Below are positions 4,418-60,153 of a DNA stretch of 62,624 nt, piece by piece. This DNA is from a virus. Lineage: Duplodnaviria; Caudoviricetes. The position numbers were made by a program, and so were the translations under genes. The stretch covers positions 1-62,624 of the IMG/VR virus record IMGVR_UViG_3300023179_000109; one strand, given 5' to 3'. The stretch's first letter is position 1. Every line of letters begins with the position of its first letter. A model generated the notes under the pieces. It saw only the letters and a list, made by a program, of their open reading frames with translations, was not told the DNA's origin and searched no databases.

Positions 4418-4765
4418 TTAATAATTCAATCTTTCTTTGTGACTGTTTAAGATTGCTAATATGTTTTCTCTTCCTACAGGATTTGCCGAATGACAATTAA
4501 ACTCAGGTATAGGTAAACCATTTTCCATACAATAACCACACATCCATTTTGCCGCGTCATAACCCGTTTTTTCTTCGTATTTGAAACTTTCGGTATAAGT
4601 TTTTGGGTCATAATGGATTTCAGCTAAATCATGGTCAAAAGACACTTCATCGGGTAATCCGTTTTTTGTTACCCAACTTACAAAATCATCGTAAGTTCTA
4701 ACAATATCCCACCCTTCAGTTTTTGGACATCTTACATCATCAAGATATAATTTTTTCATTTTCAT
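4418..4765 (-). CDS. cyclic-phosphate-processing receiver-like domain protein
   Basis: LYLDDVR.P...VSFDHDL...TGYDAAKW...HSANPVG signature. Confidence 0.75.
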   Translation of the reverse strand: MKMKKLYLDDVRCPKTEGWDIVRTYDDFVSWVTKNGLPDEVSFDHDLAEIHYDPKTYTESFKYEEKTGYDAAKWMCGYCMENGLPIPEFNCHSANPVGRENILAILNSHKERLNY

Positions 4766-6209: not shown

Positions 6210-6362
6210 TTAACCTAACCAATCTTTGTCTTCATCATCCCAATCTAAAAAGTCTTCACCTTTATAGTCAGGATGGTTTTCTTTCATATAGTCAATTCCC
6301 TGAACCCAAAAGTACGAAATTATTGCCACAACGGCAACCATTAATAAATAAATTTTCCACAT
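6210..6362 (-). CDS. small membrane protein (50 aa, not in the ORF track)
   Basis: MWKIYLLMVAVVAIISYFWVQGIDYMKENHPDYKGEDFLDW... fills the gap in the operon. Confidence 0.55.
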   Translation of the reverse strand: MWKIYLLMVAVVAIISYFWVQGIDYMKENHPDYKGEDFLDWDDEDKDWLG

Positions 6363-6377
6363 ATTATAGAGTTTTTT

Positions 6378-6980
6378 TTAATCCCACCATGATTTCATTC
6401 CTGACCCATCAAACCAATCATTCCAAACACTCTCTTCTTTCTTCTCTTCCTCTGTCTTACTATTGTAAATTTTACTAAATTCTTTCATATCTTGCCCGTG
6501 AACAATTAACCATAGTTCTTTCCATTCAGACATTTCAATTTCTCTGGCTCTCTCATAAACTTTTTTATTATGGATTCTTTCTTCCTCAGTATCTTCTTTA
6601 TCTGTCCATAACCAATCAGAGTTTTTTATTTCACCCAATTCTAATTCTGCCTGATTAACGTACTCATCACTACGAATGTTCTTAATTAATTGAATGGTTC
6701 GTTTCATCTTCCCAACCTTTTTCATTCTTGACTCTTCTACCTCTTGTCCGTAACGTTCAATTGTGTCAACAGTTTTTTCTAAAGAACGACGAAATAAATC
6801 TAAATTGAATGAATAGTCCCAAGAACGGAAAGCATATAATTCTTTTCTAAAATACCAAATATTTTCTAAAAAATACGGTAAATCTCTACGAAAAAATTCA
6901 TAGGTTTTGTACCACCAAGTTTGGTGTCTTGATAATCGTTTTAATGATTTCCAAAAACTATCTGCAAATTCTACTTTCAT
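6378..6980 (-). CDS. hypothetical protein
   Basis: ORF, likely start MKVEFADSFW. Confidence 0.6.
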   Translation of the reverse strand: MKVEFADSFWKSLKRLSRHQTWWYKTYEFFRRDLPYFLENIWYFRKELYAFRSWDYSFNLDLFRRSLEKTVDTIERYGQEVEESRMKKVGKMKRTIQLIKNIRSDEYVNQAELELGEIKNSDWLWTDKEDTEEERIHNKKVYERAREIEMSEWKELWLIVHGQDMKEFSKIYNSKTEEEKKEESVWNDWFDGSGMKSWWD

Positions 6981-7206
6981 AATATTATTTTGTTGGTCTT
7001 TTAAAAATATAATAAGTAATCCCAAGACCTATTATAATCATTGAAAGTCCTATTATCTCTACTAACATAATACAAATATATGAAAAAAATAAGACCCGAC
7101 AAAATAAATTTCGCGGGTCTTTTGGAAAAGGGATATATGAGAACACTCCCGAGGAGCGATGTAAAAATAAATATTAGATAAAATGTAAAAATTATATCTT
7201 ACAATA

Positions 7207-7620
7207 TCAAGAGAAATGATTTTTTACTCTTTTTAACAAATTTTCGTCAAAATTTACACCATGTCTATCTTCAAAATTATTTAATAGGTGTTTCATTGAT
7301 TCTTTCTTTCCTTTATTGTTTAATAGAATATATGCACCTAAATCAGCATCCATTTCTTCTTCATCATTTCTTGGACCATCATGACCCAATATAATGTGAG
7401 CAATTTCGTGAGCCTCAATAAATTTAAGAACGTTAGAGTCAAAATTTTCAACAATATTTTCACCATCAATTACGACCAAGTTTTTATTTGGTACTAAAAA
7501 TCCATATCCATATTCTTTAAAAAAAGGAATTAATTTTTCGTATTGAGGACTGTCAGAAAAAACAACCGCAATTGTAATTTCAGGTAAAAATTCACTATTG
7601 TACGAGATTGGTTTTGACAT
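7207..7620 (-). CDS. zincin-like metallopeptidase domain protein
   Basis: HEIAHIILGH...EMDAD (HExxH plus downstream E/D). Confidence 0.65.
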   Translation of the reverse strand: MSKPISYNSEFLPEITIAVVFSDSPQYEKLIPFFKEYGYGFLVPNKNLVVIDGENIVENFDSNVLKFIEAHEIAHIILGHDGPRNDEEEMDADLGAYILLNNKGKKESMKHLLNNFEDRHGVNFDENLLKRVKNHFS

Positions 7621-37228: not shown

Positions 37229-37876
37229 TTATTCAATACACAAAATATCATTAATAATTTCTTTGCTGGAGAGAGAAGTCCAACATCTTGGGTGTTCATA
37301 TGACCAAAAAGTTTTCCAATAACCAAACCATAACACTCCTTCTTTTCTTGGGTCTACAGTCCTCCAGTCATTAGATGATTTAGGGTATCTACCAATTTTA
37401 TATATTTTATAAAAATCAATATCTTTTGTTAGATATTTCGTATTAAAACTATTGTTTAACTCATCAAACTTTGATTCAATGACAATTTTACAATTATGCA
37501 TTGTTTGATATTTTTTAATTTGTTCAATCCAAATTTCAGCTTCTTTGAAGTTTGAAGTATCTAAAACAAATTTCAATAATTTACCATTATCGTTATATCT
37601 GTGAGAAAATATTTTTTGTAATCCTGAATCTTCATTAAATCGGTAAACGTTAATTTCAAAATCAAAATAAAATTCTATTGGTAGATTAAAATATGAGTTA
37701 TTTCCTTTTCCAGGTTTAGTTGTTATATGATATGATTCCACAAATACAGGAGAATCATTATTTTTTTTAAATTCGTTAATTTCAACTAAATAATACGTTT
37801 CAGGACCATCAACATAAACTTTAATACCTGATTGAAAATTTAGTCTAATTTTTTCATTATTTATTTGTGTAAACAT
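37229..37876 (-). CDS. hypothetical protein
   Basis: ORF overlapping the carbamoyltransferase stop. Confidence 0.55.
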   Translation of the reverse strand: MFTQINNEKIRLNFQSGIKVYVDGPETYYLVEINEFKKNNDSPVFVESYHITTKPGKGNNSYFNLPIEFYFDFEINVYRFNEDSGLQKIFSHRYNDNGKLLKFVLDTSNFKEAEIWIEQIKKYQTMHNCKIVIESKFDELNNSFNTKYLTKDIDFYKIYKIGRYPKSSNDWRTVDPRKEGVLWFGYWKTFWSYEHPRCWTSLSSKEIINDILCIE

Positions 37877-39449
37877 AATTTTCAATAACAAGTTTATCTA
37901 TAATACCATTTTGTAGACTAATAAATGCATCTTCTGGGTTATCAATAATTGGCTGATTGTGTGAGTTAAATGATGTATTTAAAAGTACTGGTATTTTTGA
38001 AAGTTTATGATACTCGTTTAGTATTTCCCAAAATTTTGGGCAATTGTCTTTTTTAACTAATTGAGGTCTGGCGGTTTTATCAGATTTTTGAATCACAGCA
38101 GGAATTTTTTCAATCCATTCTTCTTTGGTTGGATAACAAATTGTCATAAATTCTGCACTATATTTTGATTTATTTCCTTCAAATATATCATCAAAATATT
38201 CTTCCATCACTATTGGTGCAAATGGCATTAATTCATATCTCTTTAGTCTTGTATTCAGTATTTCATGAGTACCAATATCCGTTGGTCTAACTAAAATACT
38301 TCTAGCACCAAGTGCTCTTGGTCCATATTCAAAACCATCTTGAAACCACCCAATAATTTTACCTTCATTTAAATCTTTGGCAATTGCGTTTGATTCATAA
38401 AATTCTTTATTAAAATCAAAATTTTTTGATATATTAAAAATTTGATAATCAGAATATTTTAATCCAAAATATAGGTTTTTTAATTTTTTTGGTTTTGTCC
38501 ATTCACCTAATTGTACTGCTTTGTAAATGCAGGCACCTAATGAAAGCCCCTCATCACCCATTGCAGGATAAATATAAATCTCATCAACCCAATCAAGTTC
38601 ATTTATCTTTTGATTTAATTTAACATTGGCAAACAATCCACCTGAAAAACATAATTTTTTGTATTCAGGAAACCTTATATGTAAATCGTTTAGAAATGAC
38701 AAAAACAAATCTTCTGTTATTTTTTGTAAATTGTATGAAAAAATTTCTCTTTTTGTTTTTGTGTCAAAAAAACCTTTTTGGTACATTGAATCAATAACAA
38801 GTTGGGTTTTTCCCGCGGTATTTGAGGGAAAAAATTTTAAGTTTTCATAATCAATGCATGAATTAAGAAACTTATATATTTTTTCATCATAGTAACCATT
38901 TGGCGCCATTCCCATTAGTTTCCCTTCATCCTTACACATTTTCCACGTGCCTTCAAACTTAGAATTGTGTCCCATTATACCATTTGTGCTAAATGCCCAC
39001 AAATGTGCTAAACTTCCTGTGTTACACATATCGTAACTGTATAATAAGTTCATTTTACCATCTTCACACATGTAGACCTTCATTACTGACTTATCTCCAC
39101 CACCATCATAAGAAATAGTTAGAACTTTTCCATCCATTCCACTTGTGAAATATGAACCATAACAATGAGCGTCGTGATGACTTACTCTTTCGTAATTGTT
39201 ATTTGTTATTTGGTTTGCGAATCTATCAGTCACAGGCTCAACAAATACCCTATGGTCGGAATCTAATATTTTTAAATCACAGTAGCTTTCAACAACTTTT
39301 GATGATAGTTCTGCAACCGCATCAAAATTATCTCCTGCTTTAATACGAGTAATTCTTTCTTCTTCAATACAACAAACAATTTCACCATCAATTACAAGTG
39401 ATGTTGCTGGACTGTGAGACCCACCAAAAAAACCATAAATTGAACTCAT
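37857..39449 (-). CDS. NodU/CmcH-family carbamoyltransferase
   Basis: EEERITRIK, HHDAH, DGGGD, EGKLMG, GPRALGARS, PFAP, LNTSFN. Confidence 0.92.
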   Translation of the reverse strand: MSSIYGFFGGSHSPATSLVIDGEIVCCIEEERITRIKAGDNFDAVAELSSKVVESYCDLKILDSDHRVFVEPVTDRFANQITNNNYERVSHHDAHCYGSYFTSGMDGKVLTISYDGGGDKSVMKVYMCEDGKMNLLYSYDMCNTGSLAHLWAFSTNGIMGHNSKFEGTWKMCKDEGKLMGMAPNGYYDEKIYKFLNSCIDYENLKFFPSNTAGKTQLVIDSMYQKGFFDTKTKREIFSYNLQKITEDLFLSFLNDLHIRFPEYKKLCFSGGLFANVKLNQKINELDWVDEIYIYPAMGDEGLSLGACIYKAVQLGEWTKPKKLKNLYFGLKYSDYQIFNISKNFDFNKEFYESNAIAKDLNEGKIIGWFQDGFEYGPRALGARSILVRPTDIGTHEILNTRLKRYELMPFAPIVMEEYFDDIFEGNKSKYSAEFMTICYPTKEEWIEKIPAVIQKSDKTARPQLVKKDNCPKFWEILNEYHKLSKIPVLLNTSFNSHNQPIIDNPEDAFISLQNGIIDKLVIENYVYTNK

Positions 39450-41119
39450 GTTGTCTTTGTAATTAAAACATTATTTAAAACTAAGAAATCCAATCCGTTT
39501 TCTATAAAACTTTTTATTGCGTCTTTAGGTGTTTCAACCATTGGTTCTCTTGGTCCATTGAAACTTGTATTGAGTAATACTGGTACACCAGTCTTTTCGT
39601 GGAATTTTTTAATTAACGAATAAAATCTTGGATTGTTTTTTTCGGTAACTGATTGATGTCTGGCAGAATAATCTATATGAGTTACTGCAGGGATTTTATT
39701 TCTCCAATCTTCTTTTACTGTTGTAGTTACTAACATATATGGTGAGTAAACATCAGATTCAAAAACTTCTGATTGATGTTCAAACAAAACAGCTGGAGCA
39801 AATGGTCTGTACCACTCTCTTTTCTTAATATCTGAATTAATATGTCCTGTCATCCAAGACTTAATTGGTGATGCAAGTATTGAACGGTTACCTAATGCTC
39901 TCGGACCAATTTCAGAACCTCCTTGGAACCAACCAATTACACGGTTTTGAGTTAACCAAAAAGAAACATCTTCAACTAATTTTTCAAAGTCATCATATTT
40001 TTCAAAAACTAAATGAGGAAATTCATTTAATGTTGAATTTATTTCCTTGTCAGAATAGGGTTTTCCTATATATGGACTTAAAGGTTCAACAACATCAATG
40101 TCAATAAGTTGTTGGTATGCGTACCACGCACATCCTAATGGGATTCCACTATCATCTGCTGGAGGAATGAAAAAACAATCTTCAAATAATCCTGAATTTA
40201 ATATTTTTTCATTTGAGTTACAGTTCAAGAATGAGCCGCCAGCAACACATATATTTTTAGAGTTAGTCAGTGTTTTTGCTTTCTCTGCAAGCATTAAAGA
40301 AACTCTCTCTTGTTCTCTTTGATAAATTCCCGCAACACAAGCTCTTGAGAAAAAATCTGAATTGTAATTAACTCTTGGATAGATTCTTTTGTTAGGGATA
40401 AAAATATCACCGTCTTTTTCAACAATAAAATATGGTGCTTCGTTTACAATATCTTGGTCAGCATATGATGCAAGACCCATAAGTTTACCCGCTGGCCACG
40501 TGTTATGGTTTGGTTCAAAGATTAATTGTAACGACCCTTCAGAATATACCGTACCAACGGAAACACCGTCTTCAGTTTCCAAAGGAACTGGCCACTTAAT
40601 CCATTTTTTGTAAACTTCAGTATATTCATTTTTTTTAATGTGATATATTGAAATTCCCTCACTCCAATCTTGACGAGTTTCTATTTTTTCATTATAGACA
40701 TCTTTATACCAAAGGGGTAGTTTATTAAGATGACTCAAAATACTACCAGACGCATCAGCAACAACAACCGCAGCTTCGTCAAAACCTGAGCTGAAGAAAG
40801 ATGAATATGCGTGAGCTAAATGGTGAGGTAAAAATTTGGTTTTATTTGTTAAATCAACTTTGAAATGTTTTCTCATTTGTTCGTCTACATCATCAACCAT
40901 TTCGGTTGTACTGTATACAAACAAATCAATATCTTTATAAGTTATTCCCAAATAATCTAAACAATAATTAATTGAATCATAAGGTATGGTTCCGCCCTGA
41001 TATGCGCCGTCGTGTTTTATTCTTGAAAGTCTTTCTTGGGTAATCCCCACGGCAACTTTTCCGTCTTCAATTATAACTGCACCCTTATCATGGCCAACAG
41101 AAAATCCTAATGTCCTCAT
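39446..41119 (-). CDS. NodU/CmcH-family carbamoyltransferase
   Basis: GHD, ERLSRIKH, HHLAHA, GKLMGLA, GPRALGNRS, RPFAP, LNTSFN. Confidence 0.93.
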   Translation of the reverse strand: MRTLGFSVGHDKGAVIIEDGKVAVGITQERLSRIKHDGAYQGGTIPYDSINYCLDYLGITYKDIDLFVYSTTEMVDDVDEQMRKHFKVDLTNKTKFLPHHLAHAYSSFFSSGFDEAAVVVADASGSILSHLNKLPLWYKDVYNEKIETRQDWSEGISIYHIKKNEYTEVYKKWIKWPVPLETEDGVSVGTVYSEGSLQLIFEPNHNTWPAGKLMGLASYADQDIVNEAPYFIVEKDGDIFIPNKRIYPRVNYNSDFFSRACVAGIYQREQERVSLMLAEKAKTLTNSKNICVAGGSFLNCNSNEKILNSGLFEDCFFIPPADDSGIPLGCAWYAYQQLIDIDVVEPLSPYIGKPYSDKEINSTLNEFPHLVFEKYDDFEKLVEDVSFWLTQNRVIGWFQGGSEIGPRALGNRSILASPIKSWMTGHINSDIKKREWYRPFAPAVLFEHQSEVFESDVYSPYMLVTTTVKEDWRNKIPAVTHIDYSARHQSVTEKNNPRFYSLIKKFHEKTGVPVLLNTSFNGPREPMVETPKDAIKSFIENGLDFLVLNNVLITKTT

Positions 41120-41722: not shown

Positions 41723-42214
41723 TTATGAAAAAAAGGATTTTTGATAATCATTCCAAACCATTTGTAATTTAGGATTTTCCCCAACTAAAGTTGGAACAAA
41801 AGGTTTTTGTCTCATTATTAATTTTGCCTCTTCAGGAGTTCTATTTCCCTTCCTTAAATTACATTTAAAACAAGATGTAACAAGATTGGTCCATTCGTTT
41901 CCACCACCTCTTGATTTGGGTATAACGTGGTCTAATGTCAAATCTTTATTTGACCCACAATACACACACTGATAATGGTCACGCTTATAGATTCTTGGCC
42001 TACTTGCCCTGATTGTCCTTGTTTTGTGTTTGATATAATTTAACAATCTGATGATTAACGGGCGTACGAATGTTTGATAGCCAGTGACAATAGGATTCTC
42101 ATCTGATTTTATAATCTCAGCTTTACCCTTGTCTACAAGTACAAATCCCCTCCTAATACTCGTAACATTTAGTGGGGTATAATCGTAATTCAAAACCAAC
42201 ACGTTACTCATCAT
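41723..42214 (-). CDS. HNH endonuclease
   Basis: [10 protein letters not shown]...[12 protein letters not shown]...[10 protein letters not shown]. Confidence 0.92.
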
Positions 42215-42762: not shown

Positions 42763-43443
42763 ATGAAAATCAAACAACTTATCCTTGCGGTGGCGGTAAC
42801 CGTAACAGTAGCATCTTGTACAAAACAGGACATTTCAACCCCTGAACAAGTTAGTCAGGTTCAAACTAACTCTGTCGCTGCAGTAAGTACAAACACAGTT
42901 CTAGAATCTACAAATGTTGCTTACATCTTTATTGAACCGAAAAATAAACAGAATCTTATTGTAAAATATCTTAAAGATTCGGTTTCTCATTCCGTTGGAA
43001 TTCCTTTCTTAGGTTTTAATATGGGTTACGGTATTTCTGCTACTAACAAAAATGATGTATTGAATTATATTAACTTAAAATATTGGTATAATGGTCAGTT
43101 ACCTCAAGTAAGAACTGTAAACATTTCCCAAACAAATTTTAAGATGGACTCTATTTCAATTGTAAACTCTTCTATCAATGATAATAGTTCTTGGGTTACA
43201 ATTTTGATTCCTGTATCTGCCATGAGTAATGATACCTACAGACAATCTCGTGTCACAATTGGTGGTACAGGTCTTAGAACCTCTGATGTCACAATGAATA
43301 GTACGATTCATGGATATACCTTTGACTACACAGGTAACTATCTTCCAAAGACAAGATATAGACTTTATACAACTTTTGTAAGTCCTACCGTAAGGTTTGA
43401 TTTAACAAAATCTGGATTTATTTACCTAAAAGGGTGTAACTAA
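42763..43443 (+). CDS. lipoprotein
   Basis: TVASC lipobox. Confidence 0.7.
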   Translation: MKIKQLILAVAVTVTVASCTKQDISTPEQVSQVQTNSVAAVSTNTVLESTNVAYIFIEPKNKQNLIVKYLKDSVSHSVGIPFLGFNMGYGISATNKNDVLNYINLKYWYNGQLPQVRTVNISQTNFKMDSISIVNSSINDNSSWVTILIPVSAMSNDTYRQSRVTIGGTGLRTSDVTMNSTIHGYTFDYTGNYLPKTRYRLYTTFVSPTVRFDLTKSGFIYLKGCN

Positions 43444-43478
43444 TTGACTTTGGAACATATTTATAATATTATTACACT

Positions 43479-43630
43479 ATGAGACATTTGAATTTAAATA
43501 CAGGAAACAGACCGACAACACCTAATGGTGATGCGGGCACTCTATGCTTAGATTCAGATACTGATGTTGGATAATTAAAAAATGAAGCCAAATATTAAAA
43601 CCCTGAATCTTGAAAGTTCGGGGTTTTTTT
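43479..43630 (+). promoter_or_regulatory. tRNA-array attenuator 1: leader peptide 43479-43574, antiterminator segment and terminator 43597-43630
   Basis: MRHLNLNTGNRPTTPNGDAGTLCLDSDTDVG*; AGATTCAG (43550-57) is complementary to CTGAATCT in the terminator 5' arm. Confidence 0.7.
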
Positions 43631-43650
43631 ATTACCTTTGTTTGAGAATT

Positions 43651-43723
43651 AGGGAAGTAGCGCAGTAGGTAGCGCACTTGGTTTGGGACCAAGGAGTCGC
43701 AGGTTCGAGCCCTGTCTTCCCTA
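43651..43723 (+). tRNA. tRNA-Pro(TGG)
   Basis: CTTGG-TTTGGGA-CCAAG anticodon arm. Confidence 0.93.
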
Positions 43724-43837
43724 CATATGAAAAAAGATATACATCCGTTTTGGAGTTTGACAACTCTATTGTTTACTTGTTTGGTGATTTTATTTTCACC
43801 ATTAATTTCTGGATTGTATCTTTGGATGTATGTTAGA

Positions 43838-43909
43838 GTCTCCTTAGCTCAGCGATAGAGCGATTCGCTGTTAACGAATAAGTCCCTGGTTTGAATCCAG
43901 GAGGGGACG
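43838..43909 (+). tRNA. tRNA-Asn(GTT)
   Basis: ATTCG-CTGTTAA-CGAAT; atypical D and T loops. Confidence 0.88.
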
Positions 43910-43914
43910 CAAAA

Positions 43915-43987
43915 GCGGGAGTAGCTCATTCGGTAGAGCGATAGCCTTCCAAGCTATAGGTGGCCAGTTCGAGCCTGGTCTCCCGCT
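43915..43987 (+). tRNA. tRNA-Gly(TCC)
   Basis: ATAGC-CTTCCAA-GCTAT. Confidence 0.95.
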
Positions 43988-44042
43988 CAAAGTGGATAAA
44001 ACGTGTAGTAACCACAGGAAAGGTACCTTTCACTACACTCCA

Positions 44043-44115
44043 GCGGAAGTAGCTCATTCGGTAGAGCACAACCTTGCCAAGGTTGGGGTGGCCAGTTCGA
44101 GCCTGGTCTTCCGCT
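44043..44115 (+). tRNA. tRNA-Gly(GCC)
   Basis: CAACC-TTGCCAA-GGTTG. Confidence 0.95.
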
Positions 44116-44230
44116 CATCTGGATACTAATGTGTAAGACAGAAGAGTATCATCGGTTGGAAACTTACATTTCACGAACCGAGGTGTGGGGACTGACCCAT
44201 CAGTTGGAATACCGCAAAGTTCCAATATTT

Positions 44231-44303
44231 GCCTCCTTAGCTCAGCAGGTAGAGCAACTGATTTGTAATCAGTAGGTCGTTGGTTCGATTCCGACAGGAG
44301 GCT
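44231..44303 (+). tRNA. tRNA-Thr(TGT)
   Basis: ACTGA-TTTGTAA-TCAGT. Confidence 0.95.
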
Positions 44304-44318
44304 CAAAAATTTTTATTT

Positions 44319-44552
44319 ATGAGTATGTTTGCGGCTTATTACGTTATATGCGTAATTTATTGTCTGTATCAATTGTTTAAAAACCTTAATAAAAGGTATA
44401 GTGATGACCCAACAGGTGCTTCACCTGAATTGGATACTATTATGGTTGTAATGATGGCTTGGGTTTTAGCACCGATTGATGTGTCTTTAACTTGGATTAG
44501 ATGGTACAAAGAGGCTGAAATTGCTAGAAGAAGACAAAATAAAGTTTTTTAA
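44319..44552 (+). CDS. small membrane protein
   Basis: true start likely MSMFAAYY after tRNA-Thr. Confidence 0.55.
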   Translation: MSMFAAYYVICVIYCLYQLFKNLNKRYSDDPTGASPELDTIMVVMMAWVLAPIDVSLTWIRWYKEAEIARRRQNKVF

Positions 44553-45130
44553 TGAATTACTCAGATACTCATAAAGTCATTTGGGCAACACCGATTAGGA
44601 CGGCGACTAGGTCTTGCAGACCAATTCAAGAATTTTTTGGATTTGATGTTGTTGGTAACCATGAATTAGAAATTCCAAAAAATAAAGAAGATTATTTTTT
44701 TGTTTTCAATACAAGAAATCCGTATACTAGAATGATTTCAATATATCATCTTTATTGTATACAATTTAAATTAGTTCCAAATAATTTTAAGATATGGATA
44801 ACAAAAAAGTTGGACGAAGAAGTGAATCTTCCCAACCAAACTTTAAATTATCAAATTTTTTTAAAGAAAAAAATTACTAAGACTCCTAATTTAATAATTA
44901 GATTAGAAAATTTGTATTCAGACGTTTTAGAACTACCATTTTTTGATAATAATTCTGACGAACTTTTTGATATATTCAATGATAATATTATTAAAAATGT
45001 TTATTCATCGGGATATGACTACAAAGAATATTATAATCAAGATTTAGCTGATTATGTTTATTCTTATTTAGAAGAAGATTTCGTATATTTTAATTACAAC
45101 AAAGACTCTTGGAAAAATGGCACACCCTAA
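44552..45130 (+). CDS. sulfotransferase family 2-like protein
   Basis: PIRTATRS (PKxA-like), RNPYTRMISIY, IIRLENL, EDFVYFNY. Confidence 0.65.
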   Translation: MNYSDTHKVIWATPIRTATRSCRPIQEFFGFDVVGNHELEIPKNKEDYFFVFNTRNPYTRMISIYHLYCIQFKLVPNNFKIWITKKLDEEVNLPNQTLNYQIFLKKKITKTPNLIIRLENLYSDVLELPFFDNNSDELFDIFNDNIIKNVYSSGYDYKEYYNQDLADYVYSYLEEDFVYFNYNKDSWKNGTP

Positions 45131-45464
45131 CGTACACGCAAAATCATCCGCCAAAAAATTCGGTGGAAAACCAGAAGACTATATCCATCTACATGAATGG
45201 TTAGATGAGACCAAAGGATGGTTTGGAGATTCTTTACACAGAATGTTTAGACATCATAGTGAAGGTATTTTTGAGATGGAAAAACGTTTTGGTCCTGAAT
45301 TCCTCAATAGTGATGGTAAAATAGTTTACACTAGATATGTTGGAGAACAACATGTTAAGGAAGATTGTAATAACTACATTCCATCCGCAAAAGAATGGGT
45401 CAATAATATTACAACAAACCAAAGACCCCAATGGATGACCAGAACACTTAAACTTGAAGACTAA
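45117..45464 (+). CDS. DUF6915-like protein
   Basis: MAHPNVHAKSSAKKFGG..EDY...HRMFRHHSEG...EQHVKED. Confidence 0.65.
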   Translation: MAHPNVHAKSSAKKFGGKPEDYIHLHEWLDETKGWFGDSLHRMFRHHSEGIFEMEKRFGPEFLNSDGKIVYTRYVGEQHVKEDCNNYIPSAKEWVNNITTNQRPQWMTRTLKLED

Positions 45465-45475
45465 TATTTATTGTT

Positions 45476-46219
45476 ATGAAAAGAAAAAAAGTGAATTCAT
45501 TTAATGTATTAACCCTTGAGGATAAACAATATCTTAGAAGAGTTTGTAGATATCTAGCATCTCTTGGAATGCAAGACGGAAGTATTGAGATGGATATTGA
45601 CAATGGTGCCGATTTTGATTTTAATGACATAGATTGGGAACATGAGGGTAGTCATTTTTCAAACAATTATAGTGCCGAAGTACCTGATGGTTTAATACCA
45701 ATATTGAAAAAAATAGGAGATTATATTCAAGAAAATGGTTTATTCCAAGAACCCGATGAAGAAGATTTAAATTACGAAAGAATTGATTTTGATATTGATT
45801 GTGAAAAATCAGAAATATCAGTAAACCATTGGTGGACATTTTACCAAAGAGGTGATGGTAATAGTATTGAATGGGATGGTGAAGAAGGAAAAGATATTTT
45901 TGAGGAATGGGAAAAAGATGGTGTTTTTGAAGACCTTGAGGTCCCAAATAATGGAATATTAACCATAAGTTACAATGGTTCTGGTGATTCAGGGTATATT
46001 GAAAGTAGTTTTAATGAAACTAATGATGGAGTACCTGCTGCGATGGAAGATTGGTGTTATAGTCAACTTGAAAATAACTTCGGTGGGTGGGAAATTAATG
46101 AAGGTTCAGATGGAGAATTTATATTTAACTTCCATGAAATGACGATTGAATTAAATCATACCTATAATGTAGAAGAAAATGCTCACGATACTATCTATGA
46201 AGAAAGTTTTGCCGAGTAA
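45476..46219 (+). CDS. acidic hypothetical protein (DUF6878-like C-terminus)
   Basis: YNGSGDSG...GWEINEGSDGEF. Confidence 0.55.
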   Translation: MKRKKVNSFNVLTLEDKQYLRRVCRYLASLGMQDGSIEMDIDNGADFDFNDIDWEHEGSHFSNNYSAEVPDGLIPILKKIGDYIQENGLFQEPDEEDLNYERIDFDIDCEKSEISVNHWWTFYQRGDGNSIEWDGEEGKDIFEEWEKDGVFEDLEVPNNGILTISYNGSGDSGYIESSFNETNDGVPAAMEDWCYSQLENNFGGWEINEGSDGEFIFNFHEMTIELNHTYNVEENAHDTIYEESFAE

Positions 46220-46260
46220 TTTTTTGATTTTCTAACTCAAATCCTTTATCTTTGTTTTAT

Positions 46261-46347
46261 ACCTTGGTGGCGAAATCGGTATACGCGCAAGACTTAAAAT
46301 CTTGTGGACAGAAAATGTCCGTGTGGGTTCAAGTCCCACCCGAGGTA
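46261..46347 (+). tRNA. tRNA-Leu(TAA)
   Basis: CAAGA-CTTAAAA-TCTTG, long variable arm. Confidence 0.95.
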
Positions 46348-46356
46348 CGTTTAATC

Positions 46357-46428
46357 GGTCCCGTAGTTAAATGGATATAACTACTCACTTCTAATGAGTA
46401 ATTCGTGGTTCGATTCCACGCGGGACTA
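46357..46428 (+). tRNA. tRNA-Arg(TCT)
   Basis: ACTCA-CTTCTAA-TGAGT. Confidence 0.93.
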
Positions 46429-46528
46429 CATATATCATATCTTCAGGTACCCGTACCGCTAACGTAGGGTTAAATAAGATACAATTTCGTGCTTGCGGGA
46501 AGTAGAATGCCTGTCTGATGTGATTAAT

Positions 46529-46609
46529 ACCCCGATGGCGTAATGGTAGCCGCGAATGCCTTAGGAGCATTTGTCGTAAGACGTGTCGGTTCGAGTCCGA
46601 CTTGGGGTA
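46529..46609 (+). tRNA. tRNA-Leu(TAG)
   Basis: AATGC-CTTAGGA-GCATT, long variable arm. Confidence 0.93.
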
Positions 46610-46649
46610 CACTTGATACTTTAATTAAAAAGTATATATTTATAATAAC

Positions 46650-46809
46650 ATGAACACTACAATGCGTCATATAGTCTTTAGTAAACAACAAGAAATTTGT
46701 TGGTATGAGACTATGCCTTGTAGTTCAGACGTGTAAATGATTTGGTAATTCCTGAAGAGAGTTATATATACAGACCCTGAACGACAGAAATGAAGTTCGG
46801 GGTTTTTTT
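46650..46809 (+). promoter_or_regulatory. tRNA-array attenuator 2: leader peptide 46650-46736, antiterminator segment and terminator 46772-46809
   Basis: MNTTMRHIVFSKQQEICWYETMPCSSDV*; GTTCAG (46723-28) is complementary to CTGAAC in the terminator 5' arm. Confidence 0.8.
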
Positions 46810-46848
46810 ATTTGGTTCTTTGAAATATTGGTTGTAAATTTGCTAAAT

Positions 46849-46920
46849 GCTCGGTTCGACTATCGGTTAGGTCATCAGGTTTTCATCCTGAAAAGACGGG
46901 TTCGATTCCCGTACCGAGTA
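46849..46920 (+). tRNA. tRNA-Glu(TTC)
   Basis: TCAGG-TTTTCAT-CCTGA. Confidence 0.93.
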
Positions 46921-47016
46921 CAAGATGATGGCATAAGAGAGGACGAATTCCGAAAGGATAAGGTTACTAATCCCTGCCGTAAACGCATTGAGAGAGTCAA
47001 TGGTGTCATCATTTAT

Positions 47017-47089
47017 AGTCTCTTAGCTCAGTTGGAAGAGTACTTGGCTTACATCCAAGGTGTCGTAGGTTCGATTCCTACAGGGACTA
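47017..47089 (+). tRNA. tRNA-Val(TAC)
   Basis: CTTGG-CTTACAT-CCAAG. Confidence 0.93.
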
Positions 47090-47099
47090 CAAAAAATGA

Positions 47100-47160
47100 C
47101 AAAGTCGGAAGTAAAACCCGTCCAAAGTCAGAAGTAAAAACAAGACAAAATCGGAAGTTA
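47100..47160 (+). repeat. three imperfect direct repeats, period 23 nt
   Basis: CAAAGTCGGAAGTAAAA / CAAAGTCAGAAGTAAAA / CAAAATCGGAAGTTA. Confidence 0.7.
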
Positions 47161-47375
47161 TGAAATATATTTTTAGAGGACATACTGTTTTTGAATATAA
47201 AGCAGATGATAAAAGGGATAAAGTAGTTCAAGGTAAAATTCATGATGCAATTCCAGCGTTTGATTTTTGTCATATGATTCCTGAGGACTATAAATTGTTA
47301 GGAGAATTTTTCAACACAGTTTATAGACACACTCAGGGAGAAGATGTACCTTTGGAAGATATTGAAGTGTATTAA
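47160..47375 (+). CDS. hypothetical protein inside the tRNA array
   Basis: ORF fills the spacer between tRNA-Val and tRNA-Phe. Confidence 0.55.
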   Translation: MKYIFRGHTVFEYKADDKRDKVVQGKIHDAIPAFDFCHMIPEDYKLLGEFFNTVYRHTQGEDVPLEDIEVY

Positions 47376-48083: not shown

Positions 48084-48203
48084 ATGAGAAAAAAACAAAT
48101 AGACCAAATGGTCAAGGCAATTAAAAAGGTGACGAAGAAAGCCTGTAAGAATAAGAAATCTGCTCGTAAGTTTCTTGTTAAGGCTGGAATTATAAAAAAG
48201 TAA
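48084..48203 (+). CDS. very basic 39-aa peptide
   Basis: MRKKQIDQMVKAIKKVTKKACKNKKSARKFLVKAGIIKK* exactly fills the Cys-Trp spacer. Confidence 0.45.
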   Translation: MRKKQIDQMVKAIKKVTKKACKNKKSARKFLVKAGIIKK

Positions 48204-59716: not shown

Positions 59717-60113
59717 TGGTGGAGATGACGGGAGTCGAACCCGTGTCTTACAAAATTAACATAAACAGACTACACGTTTAGTACAACATCGTTTCTCAAT
59801 GTTCCGAAATATTAGATTTGATATATGTGGGAAACCAATCTACAAACAACCTGGTCTCAGAGTTATTTTAAAGGAGCTCTGACCTGTGACCCCTATAGCG
59901 GACTTCTGTTCCTAGGTTATATGTCCTAACCGACCCGAGTAGTTGTTGCTTATATTAAGCTACAACTGGAGCTTCTTCAGCGATTAAGCCTAAAGTAGCC
60001 ATTTTAGCAAAAGTATTGCCGTTTGAATTTTTTCACCGTGGATTTAAGTCATAGATGAATTCTGACTACGTGCCTGCGTACCCTAACTATTGCAATCAAT
60101 ACCAAGCATCCCC
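59717..60113 (-). ncRNA. ssrA: tmRNA
   Basis: 5' GGGGATG, 3' GGTTCGACTCCCGTCATCTCCACCA with G3-U70 Ala identity, internal tag ORF 60020-59955. Confidence 0.92.
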
Positions 60114-60153
60114 AATATTTTAAAGAACTTGAACAAAGATAAGTATAAATATG

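Follow-up and report, generated by a model that had tools for sequence, protein, structure and literature searches.

The stretch of DNA analyzed here (the window) is a 62.6-kb phage contig (62,624 nt; Caudoviricetes, IMG/VR record IMGVR_UViG_3300023179_000109) with 32.7% G+C, in which ARAGORN identified 22 tRNA genes on the + strand and a transfer-messenger RNA (tmRNA). In front of its first tRNA array lies a 31-codon open reading frame (ORF), leader 1, and its sequence makes it quite likely that this leader is part of a ribosome-mediated, trp-type, many-codon transcription attenuator which controls tRNA genes and not amino-acid biosynthesis. The succession of the 31-aa leader, a terminator and eight tRNA genes of array 1 (Pro, Asn, two Gly, Thr, followed further downstream by Leu, Arg and Leu), pointed out in a first-pass annotation, was confirmed in both coordinates and translation (Table 1). 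The sequence combines a short upstream ORF, codons cognate to the downstream tRNAs, a predicted intrinsic terminator, an exclusive and covarying antiterminator and a sensor stretch at the position expected for an attenuator. The correspondence between leader codons and tRNA genes was confirmed far beyond chance, and the attenuator reading passed all available computational tests, including two predictions made in advance (tRNA-Asp and tRNA-Ala in related arrays).

With strict wobble decoding the eight array-1 tRNAs read 16 codons, to which 18 of the 30 leader-1 codons belong at a background of 0.284 in 48 long ORFs (binomial 3e-4), placing leader 1 at the top among 292 ATG ORFs of 20–60 aa in the six frames of the window. 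All eight tRNA species of the array are represented in it (simulated P = 0.0067; equaled by 94 of 13,164 sliding windows). The claim that 18 of the codons 2–22 come from the array families was reproduced by a recount (18/21 in the families P, N, G, T, L and R; background 0.347; binomial 2.1e-6), and 19 of 13,596 21-residue windows in long ORFs likewise hold 18 residues of these six families. Leader 2, belonging to a second, paralogous element in front of the remaining 14 tRNA genes, represents 13 out of 13 tRNA classes within 27 codons, which was reached in 2 of 200,000 simulations (P = 1e-5) and in none of 13,308 real windows. Its matched-codon fraction (18/27) was unremarkable: because its codon set makes up 44% of the background, the signal of leader 2 sits in coverage and not in the fraction. 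The codon sets of the two leaders are disjoint, the codons of the other set making up 2/30 and 2/27, respectively, and the absence of E, F, I, K, Q, W and Y from leader 1 and of G, L and A from leader 2 was verified. The proposed division of the genetic code between two leaders describes this phage, but does not extend to its relatives, which have three or more leaders.

Proteins flanking the leader led to five IMG/VR loci with 66–92% identity. Array 1 is included in four of these, and in each of the four the leader ORF, promoter-like site and terminator are retained and a tRNA-Asp(GTC) gene stands between those for Asn and Gly. The terminator motif common to both window elements, used as the key for the family search, matched 102 viral and at least 118 metagenomic stretches, and the same layout was present in more than 100 uncultured phage contigs. 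Among the matches listed, 208 of 237 are followed within 400 nt by a tRNA on the + strand; a short ATG ORF ending 10–70 nt upstream precedes nearly all motif matches. A looser terminator pattern gave 250 elements, 240 of them with an ATG-to-stop ORF, encoding 126 unique peptides in 28 clusters. Conservation of the leader ORF, on which the initial proposal depended, was evident from the start, stop and frame kept in relatives. Promoter-like TTTG/TTGAC ... TAnnTTT[GA] elements are located upstream of most family leaders, and a site similar to that of leader 1 (P1 in Table 1) is conserved in the related loci L001, L003 and L005. In 50,697 phage records, blastn with 43300–47300 matched only tRNA genes and one hypothetical protein, and tblastn with both leader peptides returned nothing at E up to 10; the 31-aa and 28-aa leader peptides matched 0 Pfam families at E up to 0.01.

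The leaders changed together with the arrays they precede. A class rich in P/T/N/G/D/A stands before Pro-Asn-Asp-Gly-Gly-Thr(-Ala), a Q-Q-E-x-C-W-Y class before Glu-Val-Phe-Lys-Cys-Trp-Tyr-Met-Gln-Arg-His-Ile-Ser, the class MRTTLLHTLLLDRQGLLRRLMP (8 Leu, 4 Arg) before Leu(TAA)-Arg(TCT)-Leu(TAG), a Ser-rich class before tRNA-Ser, and the leader MRNLSLHSLSYLYLHSVGSGDILM before His-Ser-Ser-Tyr and four tRNA-Leu; the direction of the leader/array match was consistent across these distinct classes. The z of the own-array codon match averaged 2.29 over the 28 leader clusters vs 0.43 (standard deviation, sd, 0.25) for permuted combinations (0 of 5000 permutations), with z > 0 in 26 clusters; in this and the following shuffle counts related sequences are treated as independent, so that significance is overstated. 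In 63 unique pairs of leader and complete array, the leader contained a codon cognate to the tRNA for 480 of the 535 tRNA species (90%; 58% expected), and 38 leaders list all tRNA species of their array. Gain and loss of tRNA genes, assessed in complete arrays only (14/33 of the leader-2 type and 23/47 of the leader-1 type), were also tracked by the leaders, with a summed difference of 7.76 (null sd 1.72; 0 of 5000 shuffles) for the leader-2 type and 4.02 (null sd 1.55; 30 of 5000) for the leader-1 type. In locus L003, for example, tRNAs for Arg(ACG), Lys and Val are missing, and where the window leader has R, K and V, that of L003 has Q, H and S; L018 has neither tRNA-Glu nor a Glu codon in its leader; in L014 and L073 tRNA-Asn is inserted in array 2 and the leaders carry 3–4 Asn codons. 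The choice of synonymous Arg codons followed the isoacceptor: the AGR:CGH ratio was 56:3 in leaders of Arg(TCT)-only arrays and 12:25 in those of Arg(ACG)-only arrays (Fisher 5e-11; background 84:16). Synonymous Gly codons were similarly associated with the isoacceptor present (p = 0.009).

The GAT and GCG codons of leader 1, unmatched by array tRNAs, had been suggested to mark lost or relocated Asp and Ala tRNAs. Among 23 complete leader-1-type arrays, Asp(GTC) was found in 20 and Ala(TGC) in 7, and because the arrays of relatives carry these tRNAs, the unmatched codons point to tRNAs absent from this phage. In the window, tRNA-Asn and tRNA-Gly(TCC) stand 4 nt apart (43910–43915), at the place where L001, L003 and L005 have tRNA-Asp(GTC). 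This phage appears to have lost tRNA-Asp, with its leader still holding four GAT codons.

Several members of the family deserve a separate mention. The MRTTLLHTLLLDRQGLLRRLMP leader (TTA x5, CTT x2, CTA, AGA x4), with its own terminator, is located at L191:585–720 and likewise in L023, L076, L151, L225 and others; the window has the Leu/Arg/Leu trio without a leader of this type, and leader 1 holds Leu and Arg codons (TTR, CTA, AGA) instead. In L235, a 375-kb contig from a bin labeled as a Bacteroidota metagenome-assembled genome, MRNLSLHSLSYLYLHSVGSGDILM (4445–4620) precedes His, Ser(GCT), Ser(TGA), Tyr and Leu GAG/TAA/TAG/CAA and contains TTA, TTG, CTA and CTC, i.e., a cognate codon for each of the four Leu isoacceptors. 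A leucyl-tRNA-synthetase-like ORF (6322–7617) lies just downstream of this array, and the neighbor genes look phage-like. A contig from a lake or freshwater DNA run (>=85% likeness) joins 43503 to 43650 of the window across unknown letters; in a related strain present there, the leader/terminator stretch appears to be a different one.

The match to array tRNAs depends on frame and position. Triplets read by the array made up 56.2% in the ORF frame vs 20.0% and 16.8% in the two other frames. The fraction of matched codons was 0.45–0.66 between 63 and 19 nt 5' of region 2, one of the pairing regions in Table 1 (0.25 expected), and at background (0.20–0.29) from 9 nt upstream onward. Enrichment at 63–19 nt is what a stalling model requires, because a ribosome paused there would keep region 1 off region 2.

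The minimum-energy fold of the window element consists of the region 1:2 helix, a middle hairpin and the terminator (3:4), whereas withholding of the terminator 3' arm made the region-2 core pair with 43603–43610 (2:3); the leader 2 element folded likewise. The reported complementarity between the core AGATTCAG (43550–43557) and a terminator arm proved to be exact, the partner being CTGAATCT, and the antiterminator pairing proposed from it covaries in relatives. In an alignment of 44 leader-1-type elements (one per peptide, peptides >36 aa excluded; mean column identity 65%), the antiterminator was paired in 95.0% of cells vs 86.8% in shuffled combinations, three of its pairs changed on both sides (32 cells vs 11.3 expected), and covariation was 0.213 vs 0.096 (0 of 500 shuffles), while slid partners paired in 5–43% of cells. 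Perfect 8-bp antiterminators occurred in this alignment in four variants: AGATTCAG/CTGAATCT, ATGTTCAG/CTGAACAT, GTGTTCAG/CTGAACAC and AGGTTCAG/CTGAACCT. An anchored, alignment-free test with 84 unique region-2/3 combinations gave 67% and 63% canonical pairs at two variable positions vs 43% after swapping (0 of 2000); the TTC[AG] anchor of region 2 was present in 135 of 151 unique elements. The competing 1:2 duplex of the window has -9.8 kcal/mol (z = -3.0), and in the alignment it was paired in 75.9% of cells vs 71.2% in shuffled ones, with a covariation of 0.198 vs 0.134 (0 of 500 shuffles). The terminator helix was 96.5% paired in the 44 relatives, a value which is not independent support since the elements were found through that motif.

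At several positions, conservation of the spacer AAGCCAAATATT (43582–43596; alignment columns 125–135) in the same relatives reaches 90% or more, which exceeds what the weakly supported middle hairpin explains. The spacer might serve for polymerase pausing or for the binding of a protein.

From this arrangement we infer that the leader is translated in coupling with transcription and that ribosome stalling results in read-through of the terminator. Transcription would begin at the promoter-like site just 5' of the ATG, and the 31-codon leader would be translated while RNA polymerase moves on, codons 2–22 listing what the downstream tRNAs can decode. When all listed charged tRNAs are plentiful, the ribosome would run through, leaving region 2 covered or re-paired with region 1; the terminator would then form and the transcript would stop before tRNA-Pro. 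When any listed tRNA is scarce (possibly because the host tRNA pool does not suit this 33% G+C genome, or through host shut-off or tRNA-cleaving defences), the ribosome would stall in the sensor stretch and keep region 1 off region 2. The freed region 2 could then pair with the terminator 5' arm and loop, allowing the polymerase to enter the tRNA array, and the newly made tRNAs would relieve the stall, i.e., the supply would be on demand.

A number of points weigh against this mechanism. Leader 1 retains four GAT codons as well as GCG, CAT, TGC, TCA and GTT without a cognate tRNA in the array; in L004 the array is down to five tRNAs, yet the leader keeps most of the leader-2 codons; and in the family leaders the choice of Ser and Leu codons was not associated with the isoacceptors of the array. 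To this the overstated significance of the shuffle counts has to be added. As for the RNA structure, the search pattern had fixed the helix of the terminator and, within the antiterminator, its CTGAA part, the support for region 1:2 is moderate (mean duplex z -0.98; 33/122 below -1.64 and 98/122 below 0), and that for the middle hairpin, which may be a pause hairpin or a scaffold of the antiterminator, is weak (64.5% of cells paired vs 57.7% shuffled). A weak terminator-like hairpin at 43782–43801 could confine the read-through to tRNA-Pro. Finally, the coupling of transcription and translation in the host is our inference, and the 5' untranslated region (UTR) of the leader mRNA may be close to nil: given the position of P1, from which the start site is predicted, the 5' UTR of leader 1 would be very short or absent.

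The same applies to the promoter-like TAnnTTTG motifs, whose positions at 43633 and 46247 had led to the caveat of a possible leader-independent transcription; both motifs are present and the caveat stands. The former occupies the gap between the terminator and tRNA-Pro, and further copies precede tRNA-Asn (43817), tRNA-Glu (46835), tRNA-Phe (47347) and the tmRNA (60134, - strand), in addition to that before tRNA-Leu (46247). Out of 121 unique terminator-to-tRNA intervals (gaps >150 nt excluded), 75 contained the motif, 12 a near match and 34 none. Overall, TAnnTTTG was not enriched in the window (114 found vs 102 expected), and only its placement before RNA genes appears informative, in a suggestive way. 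Much of the tRNA transcription may bypass the leader, and in the window a basal level of transcription independent of the leader probably comes from the motif behind the terminator. A classical attenuator has no promoter behind its terminator, whereas the promoter-like TACCTTTG is present here; this feature is, however, not strictly defining. The tRNA started within 12 nt past the T-run in 18 of 136 unique cases and within 6 nt in 11 of them, and in L020 it begins directly after nine T. In such close-spaced members the tRNA would be made only by terminator read-through, because there is no room for a promoter after the T-run. In our reading, the attenuator would represent the ancestral control, to which many members, including the window, have added a basal promoter.

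Three other explanations have to be weighed against attenuation. The leader might form a small transcription unit of its own, in which the ORF depends on the phage tRNAs and the output is the peptide or a terminated small RNA, which would signal the arrival of these tRNAs and act as a timing device or consumer, while the tRNAs are made from promoters behind a terminator that merely insulates. The frequent TAnnTTTG motif behind the terminator in the window and in relatives would fit such a unit, as would the moderate amino-acid conservation of the leader peptide and the exact bracketing of the ORF by a promoter-like site and a terminator, but we regard it as unlikely: the close-spaced members leave no room for such promoters, a plain insulator would need no antiterminator overlapping and covarying with the terminator, the peptides have no Pfam family match, and the matched codons end about 19 nt before region 2, as predicted by ribosome-controlled folding and not by a function of the peptide. 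An even less probable explanation, to which we give little credence, is an RNA switch independent of translation, whose helices answer a protein or RNA ligand, possibly tRNA directly in a T-box-like way, the open frame being incidental. Its three alternative helices would be those backed here by folding and covariation, and a transcription start at or beyond the ATG would favor it. Yet the tRNA match is periodic in one frame (56% vs 20% and 17%), this frame is open from ATG to stop in nearly all elements, and synonymous Arg codons follow the isoacceptor present. Neither T-box nor any other Rfam family was found at threshold, curated Rfam models giving in the leader region only sub-threshold ohsC, Yfr10 and NsiR1 (E 0.35–0.69) over the stretch from the stop codon to the terminator (43566–43640), and we know of no precedent for a row of 15–20 separate specifier triplets.

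That the whole arrangement results from chance or composition, i.e., a short ORF in A+T-rich intergenic DNA followed by the terminator of the upstream gene (42763–43443), is hardly credible. It is true that some long-ORF windows reach 18/21 as well, that five small ORFs of the window cover all eight tRNAs and that consensus promoter and terminator matches show no enrichment across the region overall. However, more than 100 contigs show a conserved leader which changes along with its array, a chance origin is opposed by each of the permutation, frame and position tests, and with a mean column identity of 65% the related loci are not assembly copies of one sequence.

Table 1. Features of the attenuator-like element and the adjoining tRNA genes in the window (coordinates in nt).
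Feature	Position	Strand	Remarks
Promoter-like site P1	43444–43472	+	TTGACT, 17 nt, TATTAT; 10/12 consensus matches; ends 6 nt before leader ATG
Leader ORF 1	43479–43574	+	31 codons, MRHLNLNTGNRPTTPNGDAGTLCLDSDTDVG; putative sensor codons roughly codons 2–22
Region 1 (anti-antiterminator arm)	43486–43497	+	Codons 3–7; predicted to pair with region 2 when ribosome-free
Region 2	43548–43559	+	Codons 24–27; core AGATTCAG at 43550–43557; partner is region 1 or terminator 5' arm and loop
Middle hairpin	43562–43597	+	Spans stop codon and conserved AAGCCAAATATT spacer; from fold
Predicted intrinsic terminator (regions 3 and 4)	43597–43630	+	12-pair hairpin at 43597–43627, then 7 T; 5' arm 43598–43608, 3' arm 43616–43626; antiterminator partner CTGAATCT at 43603–43610
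Promoter-like motif P2, TACCTTTG (TAnnTTTG type)	43633–43640	+	10 nt 5' of tRNA-Pro
tRNA sub-array Pro(TGG), Asn(GTT), Gly(TCC), Gly(GCC), Thr(TGT)	43651–44304	+	Starts at 43651, 43838, 43915, 44043 and 44231; ARAGORN
Four protein ORFs separating the two tRNA groups	44280–46219	+	90, 192, 115 and 247 aa; last two DUF6915 and DUF6878
tRNA sub-array Leu(TAA), Arg(TCT), Leu(TAG)	46261–46610	+	Starts at 46261, 46357 and 46529; without own leader here; TATCTTTG at 46247–46254
Second, paralogous element	46613–46842	+	Bounds array 1, precedes remaining 14 tRNAs; promoter-like site 46613–46640, leader ORF 2 46650–46736, terminator 46775–46809, TAAATTTG 46835–46842

Just upstream of the tRNA region (37857–41119 and 41723–42214, both on the - strand) lie genes for two neighboring, paralogous carbamoyltransferases of the NodU/CmcH-like type and for an HNH endonuclease; when 10 large ORFs were compared with PHROGs, a carbamoyltransferase and a thymidylate synthase were the only ones to receive a name. 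Within the second array, the gap between tRNA-Cys and tRNA-Trp is exactly filled by a Lys-rich 39-aa ORF (48084–48203), which is not accompanied by a terminator motif. The phage-borne tmRNA (59717–60141, - strand) encodes the tag peptide AEEAPVVA, and TATCTTTG is present 20 nt upstream of its 5' end.

Shine-Dalgarno-like 4-mers preceded 4 of 63 long ORFs in the window vs 8 of 63 in a control window, and since so few long ORFs have one, a leader without a Shine-Dalgarno sequence is normal in this genome. Upstream of the long-ORF starts the sequence is rich in A, which occupies position -3 in 56% of cases. Related contigs reach 317–375 kb, and the DNA sequencing runs containing the region were lake or freshwater metagenomes. 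No RNA run was listed among those containing it; a single candidate RNA run (share 0.06) proved to be probably DNA, consisted of contigs and did not cover the leader. In bacterial genomes the terminator pattern was found in 48 stretches, of which only L235, with a Bacteroidota bin label but phage-like genes, has a tRNA within 400 nt downstream. As to the host, the lack of Shine-Dalgarno sequences, the TAnnTTTG motifs and the Bacteroidota label of that bin provide no more than hints.

On the scale of the family, it seems fairly probable that large uncultured freshwater phages run a 'tRNA-stat', in which the leader peptide of each tRNA block acts as a manifest: a stall on any listed codon would switch the terminator off and top up the missing tRNAs, and the manifest would co-evolve with tRNA gain and loss. 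If true, this would be the first attenuator class with tRNA itself as the product and the most multivalent leader known. To our knowledge, the regulation of phage tRNA arrays is largely unknown; in the full-text literature as far as it was accessible to the search no description of leader-peptide control of tRNA genes was found (with 0 occurrences in a term search within PMC2965389), which does not prove its absence from print. Such phages would monitor the decoding capacity of the host codon by codon, going beyond constitutive tRNA expression, and demand sensing would connect the tRNAs of phages with conflicts over the tRNA pool of the host. For annotation, a leader of this kind predicts the tRNAs which its array holds or recently held, as was the case with Asp and Ala, both correctly predicted from the window. 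The elements might also be reused as reporters, being compact natural multi-input sensors of tRNA availability.

The enterobacterial trp, his, leu, thr and pheA operons are controlled by leader-peptide attenuators, in which regulatory codons in a short ORF, the pairings 1:2, 2:3 and 3:4 and a terminator precede the genes. The trp/his type has in common with the phage element the short ORF with regulatory codons, the four regions, the terminator and a choice of helix by the ribosome position, the latter being predicted here. In contrast to the enzymes regulated there, the presumed targets here are tRNAs, in a phage; instead of a run of one codon, the leaders contain one to few codons each for 8–15 different tRNAs; and an additional promoter-like motif often follows the terminator. 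There was no sequence relation to the amino-acid-operon leaders, none of the Rfam leader families scoring at E up to 1. T-box riboswitches also sense the state of a specific tRNA and use a terminator/antiterminator switch before translation-related genes, but they bind uncharged tRNA directly and need no ribosome, recognition depending on a single specifier codon and the conserved T-box sequence, whereas here the signal is periodic in an open frame. A T-box riboswitch was rejected as a candidate, with no T-box match at E up to 1 in 43300–47000. In the pheST attenuator of E. coli (pheM leader), an aminoacyl-tRNA synthetase of one amino acid is controlled, i.e., a translation component serving the codons of the leader, as proposed here, although it is a synthetase and not tRNA genes. 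Multivalent attenuation is represented by the ilvGMEDA/ilvBN leader with Leu, Val and Ile codons and by the thr leader with Thr and Ile codons: a single leader senses several amino acids or tRNAs and any stall gives read-through, as proposed for the phage element. These systems deal with two or three amino acids of one pathway, whereas the phage leaders cover 6 amino-acid families (leader 1) or 13 (leader 2), and, unlike in the ilv and thr leaders, their codon list changes with the downstream gene content. If the proposed mechanism is correct, classical attenuation would extend from amino-acid supply to tRNA genes and from few codons to more than a dozen.

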